In this document: piece by piece, positions 7,375 to 31,486 of the stretch
Numbering within the stretch: the stretch's first letter is position 1
How the letters are laid out: every line of letters starts with the position of its first letter
Virus record (IMG/VR): IMGVR_UViG_3300021420_000021
Coordinates: 1-64,000 of that record
DNA: 64,000 bases
DNA from: a virus
Reading direction: 5' to 3' (one strand)
Notes under the pieces: model-generated
What the model saw: the letters and a program-made list of their open reading frames with translations, nothing else
What the model was told of the DNA's origin: nothing
Databases searched by the model: none
Position numbers and translations under genes: made by a program

Positions 7375-7670
7375 ATTTGCCGGGTTTCTGTTTCCAAGTA
7401 CCCGGCGAACTCAGTCTACGCCCCTGCGGACGCAGACATCGCTTTCACGTTAGTGTTAGCGTTTATGGTTTCTGTGTCCTTAACGCGGCCACAGCATTCG
7501 TGTCCATCCATTGCTAATTCATCGCCGCCATCGATAACCAGTATCAGGCCCATCAAAGAGTCTTGCGAATAACCGCCTAACGATGCCTTCGCATCTAGAT
7601 TACACGAAGACCCTTTGGTGGACCTGCCCGGATTCGAACCGGGGTGTGACAACGGAAATAACAACTTCAT
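7375..7670 (-). ncRNA. ssrA: Circularly permuted (two-piece) tmRNA
   Basis: T-arm GGTTCGAATCC plus CAGGTCCACCA (ends 7616) precede a 64-nt intervening segment and the 5' acceptor strand GGGCCTG (G1=7551, G3-U70 pair); tag frame ANTNVKAMSASAGA* at 7460-7416. Confidence 0.9.
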
Positions 7671-7687
7671 CTGAACAAATTTACAAA

Positions 7688-27851: not shown

Positions 27852-28805
27852 ATGTCAGAAGAAGTTATTGTACAAGATATAATCGAACCGGAAGTTCTGG
27901 CAGAAGTCGTAGTGCCTGAACCAGAATTAGAATACAGTTATCAGCCGACCGATGAATCCGGCAGAAGTATCGGCGGGCGACAAGTAATCAAGTATCGAAC
28001 GCCCGAAGAACTTGCCGATAAGATGAGAGATAATTCTGTTCATCTAATCCGCAAATTGCGCCAAGTCACGAAAGAAGCAAGACTTGGGCGCGGCGAAGAT
28101 TCGATTCCTGATGACGCAGAACGTTTTGCACAGCCCGTAGACTTCCAACCAAAACCATTGTCTGCTGGCGAACGTTATGCGATTTCACAAGATTTGAACG
28201 ACCCAGAGAAGTTCGAAGCGGCCCGCGACCGACTATTAGAGTCAGCAATTGGCGCTTCGCCCGAAGATTTACGTAAGACATTAAATCAGCAACAGATTAC
28301 GACGATGCAATTACTCGCCCGTCAAAATGCGGCGATCTTTATGGAAAAGCATCCGGAATTCTATTCTGTGACTGAAAATCTTGAAGTTTTGACGAATTGG
28401 ATGATCAAGAATAGGCTATCACCAACCGTCGCGAATTTTGAACGAGCCAATTCAACGATGACAGAAGCCGGATTGCTTTTGTCACCACCTATCGTGCGTG
28501 AGGTTGCTCCAACGGTGCAAACCGTGGAGAACACGGTTCCAAATGCGGAACCAGTCGCACCAGTCACTCGGATTAGTGATTCGGCGCAACCGCAACAACC
28601 AAGCCAACCTGCAAGAGTGCCTTCGGGCCTGAATTCTCGTGTTGCTTCTAACACCGGAGTCCAGCCGAATACGGGCGCACTTACATTGGCTGATATCGAC
28701 CGCATGTCTTCTGACGAGTACAAGCGGCGATTATTGACAGACCCGAAGTTTAGTGAGAATGTCGATAAGCTCGAAGCTACTCGTCCCGCGAAGGCACGGC
28801 GATAA
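27852..28805 (+). CDS. Capsid scaffolding protein
   Basis: Acidic/helical, Pro-rich linker, C-terminal IDRMSSDEY; immediately upstream of MCP. Confidence 0.75.
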   Translation: MSEEVIVQDIIEPEVLAEVVVPEPELEYSYQPTDESGRSIGGRQVIKYRTPEELADKMRDNSVHLIRKLRQVTKEARLGRGEDSIPDDAERFAQPVDFQPKPLSAGERYAISQDLNDPEKFEAARDRLLESAIGASPEDLRKTLNQQQITTMQLLARQNAAIFMEKHPEFYSVTENLEVLTNWMIKNRLSPTVANFERANSTMTEAGLLLSPPIVREVAPTVQTVENTVPNAEPVAPVTRISDSAQPQQPSQPARVPSGLNSRVASNTGVQPNTGALTLADIDRMSSDEYKRRLLTDPKFSENVDKLEATRPAKARR

Positions 28806-28817
28806 AGGTAAGAAACC

Positions 28818-29453
28818 TTGAGTTTTAGTCCTTCAGGGAATCAACTCTCTAACCTCCCGCAATCTACCGTAAAATTTTACGATAAAAAATTCCGGGAAAA
28901 TCTAAAGGCCCAGACGCCATTCGTGGCTTGCGCCGAACGTCTCAATTTGCCTACCAACTCTGGTAATCAATATGAGATGTTCATGTACGTCCCCTTAGCA
29001 GCCAACACCAATCAAACGACCGAAGGTACTGTCGGATCGTCTTTGAGTGCTAGCGTGCTAACAACCACGGCTACGATTGGTGAATATGCCGATTACGCTA
29101 ACTTCTCTTCGCTAAGTCTTGCAACTGCAATCGACAATACTGTCGAGAACGTCGCGAAGGAAATGTCTTATCGCCTTGGCGAAAGTCTGTCCGCTCTCGT
29201 TCGTGCAACTTGCGACGGCGCGAACAGCATCGATTCTAGCGTGCTGACTCAGTTGGCCGCGACTTCGACTTCGAGCTTTACCGCTCTGTCGTTGTCCCAG
29301 ATTCGAAATAGCGTCCAGTCACTTGCTGGCCGTTCTGTCCGTCCGTTCGATGAAGCGAGTAAGAGCTTCATCGGAGTCATCCATCCTTTCGCCCTTGGCG
29401 ATGTGTTGGCTGACAATAGCAACGATTCGCCTATCGATATCCTGAAGCACACT
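28818..29453 (+). CDS. Major capsid protein (N4-gp56-like), exon 1
   Basis: FYDKKFRENLKAQT, EG, ATIGEYADY, FIGVIHP; ends ...ILKHT at the 5' splice site. Confidence 0.88.
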
Positions 29454-29510
29454 TTAATTCTATTGGGGTGTGTATAAACTTAACTATATCGGGGAACATC
29501 AAGATTTCTC

Positions 29511-29539
29511 TTGACAATCCCGAGATAACTTCTTATAAT
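29511..29539 (+). promoter_or_regulatory. Consensus sigma70 promoter inside the intron core, upstream of the LAGLIDADG ORF
   Basis: TTGACA-17-TATAAT, exact consensus. Confidence 0.75.
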
Positions 29540-29549
29540 TAAGGAACAT

Positions 29550-30350
29550 ATGAAAGACCATTCTATAGCGTATATGGCGGGTCTGATTGATACAGATGGA
29601 ACTCTTGGTATTTATTACAAGGGCAATTCTGGATATCAGGCAAGTTTAGAATTTTACAACGATGATCAACAACTTATGAAATGGGTTGTTGAGCACTTTG
29701 GCGGGCAGTTTAAACCAAAGAAAGACCCAAGACGTGGGACTGTCGGATATCGATGGACTCCGCAAGGGCGTTTACACATGTGTAGAATTCTTGATACATT
29801 AATTCCTTTCCTTGTCTTAAAGAAATCTGAAGCATTGATCGTTCGTCGATTCTTGAGTATATCGGGAGAAGCCCCGGATTTACGAAAGTATCTGGCGAAC
29901 ACTTGCAGATTCATTAAAGGCAAAAGAAGCATCGTAGAGACTGATACGTTAAGAAGTCTCTTAACAAGAAAACCAAACTTAATTCAAGCATATGTTGCAG
30001 GGCTTATAGATGGCGACGGAAACATCGACACTTATGAGTCTAGCGTTGTGATTGGCTTTACTAATATGTGCTATTCGCTCATAGATGAGTTAGTTAAACT
30101 CTATGGCGGCGGATGGTATCAATGTAAGCCGACAACACGACGATGGCAACTTAGCGGAATGAAATTTCAAGAAGCATTTTTATTGAAGATCATTCCTTAT
30201 CTTGAACTAAAGAAGCAAAGAGCAAAGGATGCTCTTGAGTTTGTACGGAGTAAAATAAACATTCCGCGACAATTTGGAAGACCTTGTAAAGAACTTATGA
30301 TACAGTCCGATCTCATGGGCGACCATGAGTGCGATTCTAGTGGAAACTAG
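29550..30350 (+). CDS. Intron-encoded double-motif LAGLIDADG homing endonuclease
   Basis: YMAGLIDTDG and YVAGLIDGDG, each followed by a LxPxLxLK motif. Confidence 0.92.
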   Translation: MKDHSIAYMAGLIDTDGTLGIYYKGNSGYQASLEFYNDDQQLMKWVVEHFGGQFKPKKDPRRGTVGYRWTPQGRLHMCRILDTLIPFLVLKKSEALIVRRFLSISGEAPDLRKYLANTCRFIKGKRSIVETDTLRSLLTRKPNLIQAYVAGLIDGDGNIDTYESSVVIGFTNMCYSLIDELVKLYGGGWYQCKPTTRRWQLSGMKFQEAFLLKIIPYLELKKQRAKDALEFVRSKINIPRQFGRPCKELMIQSDLMGDHECDSSGN

Positions 30351-30368
30351 AAATCCTAAACAATAATA

Positions 30369-30764
30369 CCAGTTGGACAAGCTAAGATGGACGAACTCGT
30401 CTCGGTCGATTTGACCGAAGTTATCGAGTTGCCGTCTAGCGGAGTGCAATTCTTTCAGACTAACCTAGTCACTCAAAGTAACAATTACAAGTCTGTTGCT
30501 GGACTTGTAGGTCTTCGGACTTACATTTTTGGCAGAGACGGCGTATTTGCTATCAATCTAGGTGCAAAAGGCGACACTGGCTATGGTGATGGCGAGTGGC
30601 GGAATATAGAATGCAATATTATGCAGAACGTTGCACCGACCGTCGCGGACCCCGAAGGCCTCATACCGGGATGGACTTCTTACAGAGTTCATTTCACCAC
30701 GAGCCTCGGACCCGATACTACGATTCGGCAGAGACAAATTGATGCCGCTTCAGCCATAAGCTAA
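30369..30764 (+). CDS. Major capsid protein, exon 2 (spliced product ~343 aa)
   Basis: In frame with exon 1 (HT|PVGQAKMDE...); RTYIFG, DPEG...GWTSY motifs. Confidence 0.82.
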   Translation, partial: PVGQAKMDELVSVDLTEVIELPSSGVQFFQTNLVTQSNNYKSVAGLVGLRTYIFGRDGVFAINLGAKGDTGYGDGEWRNIECNIMQNVAPTVADPEGLIPGWTSYRVHFTTSLGPDTTIRQRQIDAASAIS

Positions 30765-30901
30765 ACAAAATAAAGGACTTAAATGTTCTTGACTTGTTTG
30801 ATGTTGTGTGGTAAAGTAGTACAGATGTAAATTTCGATAGGGGTAGGGTGCCGCAATCACCTTACCCTGATTCGATAGCTCTATTGCGGAGAGAAAATAA
30901 C

Positions 30902-31486
30902 ATGTTTGAAAAAGGCAATACTTTTAGTCAAGGCCGAAAAATTGGTTCGCACAGTGAACAAGAAATTCAAGCTTTAAAAGAACGCAATGCCGCCCGAAAG
31001 GGTCAACCTATCACATCTGAGAAAATGTTAGCCGCTTCGCGAGCGGGGTGCAAAGCAATGAACGCTGTTAGGCACTTAAAAGCAGGCCATATTTTAGAAA
31101 ATGTTGATTCTGTCGCCCTTACAGGTGATTGTCACATTTGTGGTCAAGTGCCGATTAAGGTAATGAAGCATAGAGCGAATGGCGCTTTACGCGATCAATA
31201 TTTATGTTGGGTTGGAACTCGTTGCAGAGAGACAGACGGAGCACCTGCCAAAGTCGCGTATAAGAATCAAGCATTAGAGATGTGGAACAATCAACATGGC
31301 AATTGTGCTTTGTGTTACAAATACATGGTTCGCGCAGGAAACACCAACGAAGGTGCAACGTTAGATCATTGTCACACGACCGGATTTATACGCGGCTTTA
31401 TTCATCAAGGCTGCAATAAAGGTTTGGGTCACTTTTTAGACGACCCTGAAGTTTTAAAAATGGCTGCTGAGTATTTACTTAGATAG
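30902..31486 (+). CDS. Endonuclease VII-family (HNH) homing endonuclease
   Basis: QHGNCALC...LDHCHTTGFIRGFIHQGCNKGLG; own promoter TTGACT-17-TAAAGT at 30789-30817. Confidence 0.85.
   Translation: MFEKGNTFSQGRKIGSHSEQEIQALKERNAARKGQPITSEKMLAASRAGCKAMNAVRHLKAGHILENVDSVALTGDCHICGQVPIKVMKHRANGALRDQYLCWVGTRCRETDGAPAKVAYKNQALEMWNNQHGNCALCYKYMVRAGNTNEGATLDHCHTTGFIRGFIHQGCNKGLGHFLDDPEVLKMAAEYLLR

Follow-up and report, generated by a model that had tools for sequence, protein, structure and literature searches.

Genes for intron endonucleases are known to overlap the ribozyme cores of the introns that carry them (PMC3984707; PMC3073962), and the "core creep" hypothesis of Edgell et al. predicts how such an overlap evolves (PMC3073962). 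Group I introns within phage capsid genes have likewise been described before (PMC3706429); promoters inside introns were also known, the intron endonuclease genes of phage T4 having promoters of their own (PMC3073962). The locus described here, found in a 64,000-nucleotide stretch of viral DNA (the window), brings these features together. We consider it very probable that the whole is explained as a mobile capsid-gene intron that is spliced, that carries a double-motif LAGLIDADG gene interleaved with its ribozyme and provided with its own promoter, and whose gene descends from a single-motif form; we are highly confident of the anatomy, and moderately so of the history and of the way in which the gene would be expressed.

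The window makes up the first 64 kb of a virus record of 94,266 bp, rated 99% complete, and the sequence appears to be that of a soil phage (~94-kb) related to Tunturi_3, a phage of Tunturiibacter (Acidobacteriota). The major head protein of Tunturi_3 is uninterrupted at 343 aa, and two blocks of the window align with it so that they abut, gap-free, at ...K-H-T / P-V-G...; since the capsid blocks align without a gap, the insert is the stretch from 29454 to 30368 (Table 1). Relatives of this Tunturi-type capsid gene carry up to three introns of one family each, at ten or more sites, and the gene is an intron hot spot. A 14-mer scan of viral contigs returned nearly all chance matches and 0 new members of the intron family.

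Table 1. Features of the capsid-gene intron, its ribozyme and its reading frame, in window coordinates.
Feature	Position	Strand	Basis
Major capsid protein exon 1, ends ...K-H-T	28818-29453	+	81% identity to residues 1-212 of the Tunturi_3 major head protein; RNA contigs stop the exon at 29453
P1: 29447-29453 with guide 29467-29473, U29453-G29467 being the wobble pair of the 5' splice site	29447-29473	+	read from sequence
Group I intron, 915 nt	29454-30368	+	skipped in RNA contigs (runs X5, X15), kept in DNA run X3; core helices covary; ORF-less relatives pass RF00028
P10 guide, 5 bp with exon 2 start (30369-30373), adjoins P1	29462-29466	+	read from sequence; agrees with RNA junction
P3 5' strand, partner 29948-29953 inside the ORF	29479-29484	+	3/6 pairs changed on both sides; 100% paired
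P4 (29489-94/29518-23) around P5 (29499-503/29510-14)	29489-29523	+	100% paired, compensatory changes in both; also predicted by free-energy fold
Perfect sigma-70-type consensus (-35, 17 nt, -10) over P5', J5/4, P4', P6, P6a 5' strand and L6a start	29511-29539	+	12/12, sole match in window
P6 (29524-26) and P6a (29529-33) 5' strands; partners 29925-29 and 29931-33 in the ORF	29524-29533	+	100% paired over 8 pairs; 1 compensatory change, 1 one-sided
L6a insertion, 391 nt: -10 box, SD, start codon, nuclease domain 1	29534-29924	+	short tetraloop hairpin here in ORF-less relatives
Predicted double-motif LAGLIDADG homing endonuclease ORF, 266 aa, Shine-Dalgarno at 29541-29545	29550-30350	+	Pfam, homologs, AF2, Foldseek
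Linker-coding core: P6a', P6', J6/7 (29934-36), P7 5' strand (29937-43, A29938 bulged), J7/3, P3' (29948-53), P8 5' strand (29954-66)	29925-29966	+	covariation
L8 insertion, 318 nt = 106 codons: nuclease domain 2	29967-30284	+	short P8 hairpin here in single-motif and ORF-less relatives
Tail-coding core: P8 3' strand (30285-96), J8/7 (30297-302), P7' (30303-08), P9 (30312-29, GNRA loop), P9.1 (30336-51, GNRA loop, stop codon)	30285-30351	+	RF00028 partial match; compensatory changes in P8/P9/P9.1; fold z-score -3.5
Last intron nucleotide (omega), A instead of G	30368	+	RNA joint 29453->30369 without slide; tail length as in omega-G relative L005
Major capsid protein exon 2, starts P-V-G	30369-30764	+	77% identity to residues 213-343 of the Tunturi_3 major head protein; RNA contigs begin at 30369

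The ORF within the insert matches the Pfam family LAGLIDADG_3 (PF14528) at 30.7 bits against a cutoff of 22.5, and its protein has 17 homologs, at 58-95% identity. The two LAGLIDADG motifs occupy residues 9-17 and 149-157, and their acidic residues D14, D16, D154 and D156 are invariant in 18/18 sequences. Modelling with AF2 on the family alignment gave two domains (mean pLDDT 84, pTM 0.80), which in Foldseek searches matched monomeric LAGLIDADG enzymes with E-values down to 2.5e-12, the best matches being engineered single-chain forms of homodimeric enzymes. The product is predicted to be a monomeric double-motif LAGLIDADG endonuclease, which would cut capsid alleles that lack the intron, at the ACU|CCA junction, and so drive homing. 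The weak parts of the model, a confidence dip at residues 121-140 and a stretch of pLDDT <50 at residues 242-266, are the parts coded by the ribozyme core, suggesting that the core-coded linker is flexible and the C-terminal tail disordered.

Laid onto the helices, the codon map assigns residues ~125-139, the inter-domain linker, to P6a'-P6'-J6/7-P7-J7/3-P3' and the P8 5' strand (residues 126-135 being coded by 29925-29954, from P6a' to P3'), and residues ~246-266 to P8'-J8/7-P7'-P9-P9.1, with the last 17 residues coming from J8/7, P7', P9 and P9.1 and the stop codon lying in the P9.1 3' strand. A sequence-only reading of this locus had proposed a 266-aa ORF with two LAGLIDADG motifs that starts in L6a, passes through P6'/P7/P3' as the linker, sets domain 2 in L8 and ends through P7'/P9; the ORF is present as described, the codon map and covariation agree on the linker, and the map on the helices agrees on domain 2 and on the end, which takes in P9.1 as well. 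As a whole the observation was borne out, each of its statements on the sequence having been checked and found to hold. Core and codons coincide in two blocks of about 105 nt together (~35 codons). Third-codon positions, compared among four complete introns, were invariant in 52-53% of the core-coded codons (53% in the linker core) as opposed to 23-24% in the two domains (Fisher p 5e-4, the two core-coded segments pooled); such invariance is the signature expected of joint service as RNA and protein, and the core-coded stretches thus appear to evolve under both constraints together. Since these ~35 codons also form P6'-P7-P3'-P8 and P8'-P7'-P9-P9.1, one can measure directly here how RNA pairing and protein sequence co-evolve.

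How the two-domain arrangement arose can be approached through the relatives. Three of them carry a single-motif LAGLIDADG ORF in L6 (L009, 3657-4364; L061, 108-~890; and the first intron of L005); from L6 these ORFs continue across P6'-P7-P3', a short P8 hairpin, P7' and P9 and further on, and the window protein has a linker and a tail peptide homologous to theirs. When the domains were separated and placed in one tree, the C domains formed one clade and the N domains another; the single-motif proteins were the basal branches of the N clade, and the N subtree was largely congruent with the C subtree. The fusion, across the core, of two single-motif insertions in L6 and L8, as the sequence-only reading proposed, is not the best history, since the single-motif ORFs already cross the core past a short P8, and the step that was needed is an in-frame insertion of a 318-nt domain in L8. 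The ancestor would have been an intron whose single-motif L6 ORF had already crept through the core, into which the second domain would then have been inserted once, in frame, in L8.

Two other histories, either a double-motif ancestral gene from which the single-motif introns lost domain 2, or the landing of an independent second endonuclease gene in L8, are together possible, though we judge them distinctly less probable than not. A clade of N plus C domains was not rejected by the AU test (p 0.25), and a free-standing LAGLIDADG domain of a Gordonia phage resembles the C domain (33%) more closely than the N domain (25%) and, used as an outgroup, groups weakly with the C domains; its branch is long, however, and its placement poorly supported. 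Given the position of the single-motif proteins at the base of a single N clade, loss of domain 2 takes two events and gain takes one, so that loss is only one step less parsimonious; against it, the P8 hairpins of the single-motif introns are compact and hold no domain remnant. We retain the single in-frame insertion as the preferred history, and in view of the AU result and the weak outgroup placement domain 2 could have come either from a duplication of domain 1 or from another endonuclease gene.

The expression of the endonuclease can be considered from the sequence ahead of the ORF. An exact TTGACA-17-TATAAT consensus overlapping P5/P4'/P6 had been noted in the sequence-only reading; it is present, over P5'/P4'/P6/P6a, and unique in the window: one exact match of -35, 17-nt spacer and -10 was found in 64 kb, where 0.02 would be expected by chance. 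The -35 hexamer and spacer coincide with P5', J5/4, P4', P6 and the P6a 5' strand, while the -10 box forms the first part of L6a. The locus had also been called triple-coded. Three codes do lie within the element, but 0 nucleotides carry all three, the promoter part lying upstream of the ORF; with no nucleotide serving as promoter, ribozyme and codon together, the term is true of the element and not of any single stretch within it. We infer that the endonuclease would be expressed mainly from this promoter, with transcription starting near 29546 (~7 nt downstream) and producing an almost leaderless mRNA without the Shine-Dalgarno sequence and without P1-P5. A transcript lacking P1-P5 cannot fold as the ribozyme or splice, and its translation would spare the splicing of capsid mRNA; the candidate internal promoter would in this way separate endonuclease expression from capsid mRNA splicing, and the competition between translation and splicing that the sequence-only reading proposed would not arise for such transcripts.

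It is unlikely, though by a smaller measure than the remaining alternatives below, that the promoter match is a by-product of ribozyme constraint and an AT-rich loop, and that the pre-mRNA or the excised intron is the sole template for translating the endonuclease, by way of the Shine-Dalgarno sequence. The -35 hexamer consists of P5' plus J5/4, whose conservation serves the RNA; if transcription began near 29546, the Shine-Dalgarno sequence would be lost; and the close relative L061 has a poor -10 box. Set against these points are the 12/12 match at optimal spacing, with its low chance expectation; the location of the -10 box within an unconstrained loop; the TATAAT or TACAAT that 4/5 related lineages have in its place; the extended -10 boxes ahead of the ORFs of other introns of the family; and the promoters of the T4 intron endonuclease genes (PMC3073962). 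A hairpin that would sequester the Shine-Dalgarno sequence (29530-35 with 29540-45, the P6a 5' strand on the Shine-Dalgarno sequence) gave a fold z-score that was not significant and had no clear counterpart in relatives, and is kept as an idea only.

In order to follow splicing in nature, public runs were searched for the stretch; soil metatranscriptomes containing it were found, and their contigs were mapped on 28800-30800. In RNA contigs from two metatranscriptome runs belonging to two studies (X5, X15), 29453 was joined directly to 30369, with exactly 915 nt skipped. No letters at the joint fit both sides, so its position is unambiguous, and one joined contig showed 0 mismatches over its flanks of 235 + 99 nt. 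In the best RNA run the depth was 52-72 and 22 over the exons and ~7 over the intron; low intron depth in some bins was left out of the evidence. In the DNA run X3, only intron-containing contigs were found across both junctions. This RNA evidence consists of contigs assembled from environmental samples, which do not display RNA ends. The intron is spliced in nature at 29453|30369. Because the RNA joint cannot slide, the natural splice sites are exactly the boundaries first proposed from sequence, on which the gap-free Tunturi_3 alignment and the P1/P10 pairing concur. Two alternative splices were considered: one of 29455-30372, which ends in G and stays in frame with a protein one residue shorter, and one of 29456-30376; both were rejected on the strength of the RNA joint, the gap-free homolog alignment and P10.

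The joined contigs may instead derive from an intron-less variant with identical exons, in which case the same boundaries would result. A co-occurring intron-less phage, represented as DNA or mRNA, with an intron copy that is perhaps splicing-defective for want of a terminal G, is nevertheless a very improbable source for them. DNA can be present in metatranscriptome libraries, diverged intron-less relatives do occur in the same runs (loose ends at 29452/29453, X24 record 9), and omega-A would be expected to hamper exon ligation; yet at both junctions the contigs of the DNA run all contained the intron, the joined contigs show zero mismatches to either exon, and the exon-to-intron depth ratio in RNA is 3-10. 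The capsid gene is, moreover, essential, the omega-A lineage has kept ORF and core intact through ~7% nucleotide divergence, and two further omega-A introns exist in the same intron family. We therefore return to splicing of the intron-containing transcript, for which the following course is proposed: exon 1 of the capsid pre-mRNA would pair through its last 7 nt with the guide sequence (P1, with the U-G wobble at U29453), the intron core would fold as P3-P9 with a P3/P7 pseudoknot, and a 5-bp P10 would aid the joining of the exons at 29453|30369, restoring an uninterrupted capsid protein.

Group I introns end, almost universally, in G (omega-G). In the window intron no G occurs from 30351 to 30371, the nearest being 30350 or 30372, and the tail after P9.1 is as long as in the close relative L005/L006, whose intron, inserted in the same gene 3 nt further upstream, has a terminal G. 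Junctions were mapped in twelve introns of the family, 9/12 of which are canonical (U before the 5' site, terminal G); those without a terminal G are the window lineage (window, L003, L004, L062), the second intron of L009 and the first intron of L061, for the latter two of which A is the best reading of the terminal base from the sequence. Exon 2 starts with C in all three omega-A lineages. Differences in P7 were rejected as the cause of omega-A: the same G-C binding pair is found in omega-A and omega-G introns, and whether the pair below it is A-U or A-C shows no relation to omega. The window intron is thus spliced in nature despite omega-A, with a P7 G-binding pair that looks canonical. The hexacoral mitochondrial ND5-717 intron is the one natural omega-A precedent that was found (PMC6545197). 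The family may tolerate omega-A while still splicing an essential capsid mRNA, which would imply relaxed omega specificity or the assistance of a protein, for which the encoded LAGLIDADG, as a maturase, would be a candidate.

All of the above places the ribozyme core on both sides of, and between, the two nuclease domains, and the position of the core helices was assessed by comparison. Relatives were gathered through the ORF protein, and the structure derived from the window was scored on an alignment of six related introns. Over 55 pairs in the six introns, 97.8% of the cells were standard pairs, as opposed to 33-43% when partners were slid by 1-3 columns, and changes on both sides were seen in 19 pairs, where the slid controls gave 0-4; the observed values were reached by 0/500 shuffles. 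Compensatory pairs in the long-range helices numbered three in P3, three in P8, two in P9 and six in P9.1. P3 is found in the wider family in nine distinct versions, all of them complementary, and in distant relatives the first pair of P7 varies from G-C to A-U while the G-C beside the bulge is fixed. P3, P4-P6a, P8, P9 and P9.1 are confirmed by covariation, and P7 is supported by the more distant relatives. The guanosine-binding pair, G29939-C30307 after the bulged A29938, is kept in all relatives examined, its role being predicted from sequence. From the wobble G of P1 (G29467) to the end of the P3 5' strand the distance is 18 nt, as it is from the wobble G of the L005 relative.

Scanning of the window with Rfam at the gathering threshold gave no group I hit; in E-value mode RF00028 scored 17.4 bits against a gathering score of 50, over the 3' core only, where J8/7-P7'-P9 aligns convincingly. 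The shortfall is due to the two long loop insertions. ORF-less introns in related capsid genes, which have short hairpins at P6 and P8 (with a tetraloop in the place of the L6a insertion), score 53-61 bits with RF00028, and their J6/7-P7 and J8/7-P7'-P9 sequences are the same as those of the window. The features found are, in all, the P1 wobble, P3-P9 covariation, the P7 G-C pair, P10 and exact exon ligation; omega-G and a gathering-level RF00028 score are those the window intron lacks. The element is a group I intron, predicted to be self-splicing. An alternative P7 or P3' outside the ORF, on which the sequence-only reading would have foundered, was looked for and none was found. A conventional layout, in which a single peripheral loop would contain essentially the whole ORF and the real P7/P3' (and P8) would lie elsewhere, outside the ORF or at its very end, is hardly credible: it is the usual arrangement (PMC3984707), and cmscan placed weak P3-P8-like pairs within 30169-30290, but those pairs have low posterior probability, a P7' partner in the right J6/7 context is found at 29937-43 only, followed at the usual distance by the 6-nt complement of 29479-84, the resulting P3 pair (29479-84/29948-53) covaries in all relatives, and the ORF-less relatives show an identical helix order with short P6 and P8 hairpins.

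Three things are new in this intron: the placing of one nuclease domain in each of two ribozyme loops with the core as linker, a variant of "core creep"; a family series that shows how the arrangement arose; and a spliced phage intron with omega-A. Natural series of core-creep steps are rare, and here the intron occurs in ORF-less, single-motif and double-motif form within a single capsid-gene family. We propose, tentatively and with slightly less than even confidence, that a homodimeric single-motif enzyme became a monomeric two-domain one by taking up a domain in another ribozyme loop, with the core as linker and no tandem duplication, and that omega-A came to be tolerated in at least two independent lineages through relaxed omega specificity or protein help (e.g. 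a LAGLIDADG maturase). Monomeric LAGLIDADG enzymes are the scaffold of engineered meganucleases, and the intron family offers a concrete, testable route to them. An omega-A phage intron that is spliced in nature also questions the strictness of the omega-G rule outside mitochondria, and provides a tractable system for its study. For annotation, soil phage capsid genes may be split by up to three such introns, of which the ORF-bearing copies escape standard covariance-model scans.

Among known systems, the T4 td intron with I-TevI is similar in being a phage group I intron in a protein-coding gene, with an ORF that begins in the P6 loop, whose 3' end forms core helices, and which has its own promoter (here a predicted one), translation against folding being a concern in both (PMC3073962). 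I-TevI is, in contrast, a GIY-YIG enzyme of which only the last 20 nt overlap P6a/P7, whereas the window ORF encodes a LAGLIDADG protein and continues through P7, P3', P8, a second loop, P7', P9 and P9.1. The LSU rDNA intron of Synechococcus lividus likewise has a LAGLIDADG ORF, which runs into P6/P7/P3/P8 at one end and into P9.0/P9 at the other, an overlap of 81 nt in all (PMC3073962 Table 1); the only insertion site given for it is P8, the overlaps being extensions of its ends, while in the window each loop (L6a, L8) holds a domain and the core is an internal linker. As in mycobacteriophage LittleE and lactococcal phage Tuc2009, a group I intron interrupts the major capsid gene, those introns being spliced in late expression (PMC3706429). 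The LittleE intron also carries a LAGLIDADG gene, but on the opposite strand; it ends in G, and no interleaving with the core is described (PMC3706429). The hexacoral ND5-717 intron resembles that of the window in ending in A while its exons are perfectly ligated in vivo (PMC6545197), although it is a mitochondrial, vertically inherited giant intron that holds genes in P8 and is not mobile, and the window intron belongs to a phage. For the protein, the best structural matches, engineered single-chain I-CreI and monomerised I-MsoI (PDB 3mxa, 3fd2), share with it two homodimer-type LAGLIDADG domains and a linker; their linkers were designed by humans, whereas that of the window protein is a translated ribozyme core.

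The Tunturi-type major capsid gene is a hot spot for introns. Among related viral contigs, including L005, L006, L009 and L003, a single copy of this gene carries up to three group I introns, all belonging to one family, and the family occupies at least ten insertion sites; its members occur in three forms, namely ORF-less, single-motif and double-motif. Closely related introns were also found in the same capsid codons at sites offset from one another by 3, 7 or 10 nt (the comparison covered L005 2401-3319, the L061 intron starting at ~960, and L009 3657-4364 against L061 108-~890), and the guide sequence of each offset intron was matched to its own insertion site.

Content varied among the related introns as well. 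One intron of locus L009 holds an additional ORF, upstream of which lie a Shine-Dalgarno site and an extended -10 box, and three loops of that intron are therefore in use. The copy in L062 (1-940), a member of the window lineage, is 93% identical to the window intron; its endonuclease ORF is broken by several frameshifts, yet the core is intact, and it looks like a homing gene in decay. Directly 3' of the window capsid gene lies an endonuclease VII-family ORF, accompanied by a predicted promoter-like site (30789-30817), which is probably a free-standing homing-type nuclease.

Additional features in the window and in a related intron
Feature	Location	Strand	Evidence or setting
Permuted (two-piece) tmRNA gene	window 7428-7676	-	RF04321, 52.7 bits, above gathering score
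Endonuclease VII-family ORF	window 30848-31486		PF02945, E 5e-16
Extra ORF, ~83 aa, function unassigned	L009 2253-2504		P5 loop of related intron

Within the window intron, the 5' strand of P6a can form an alternative 6-bp pairing with the endonuclease gene's Shine-Dalgarno site (29530-29545), which might let the RNA switch between folding as a ribozyme and being translated. The hairpin was without statistical support (fold z-score not significant), and relatives offered no clear counterpart of the pairing.

Among contigs of the RNA run X24 aligned to the capsid region, record 9 comes from a ~95% identical relative in which the exons are joined (window 29452/30368). The threonine codon at its junction is ACA rather than ACU, and the record thus lacks the U required at the 5' splice site of the window intron; the relative represents either an intron-less allele or one that is spliced differently. 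Across three soil metatranscriptomes, many unrelated contigs matched window positions 30297-30329, which span J8/7, P7' and P9, at high depth, their ends loose on either side. This class of intron seems to be common, and expressed, in these soils.
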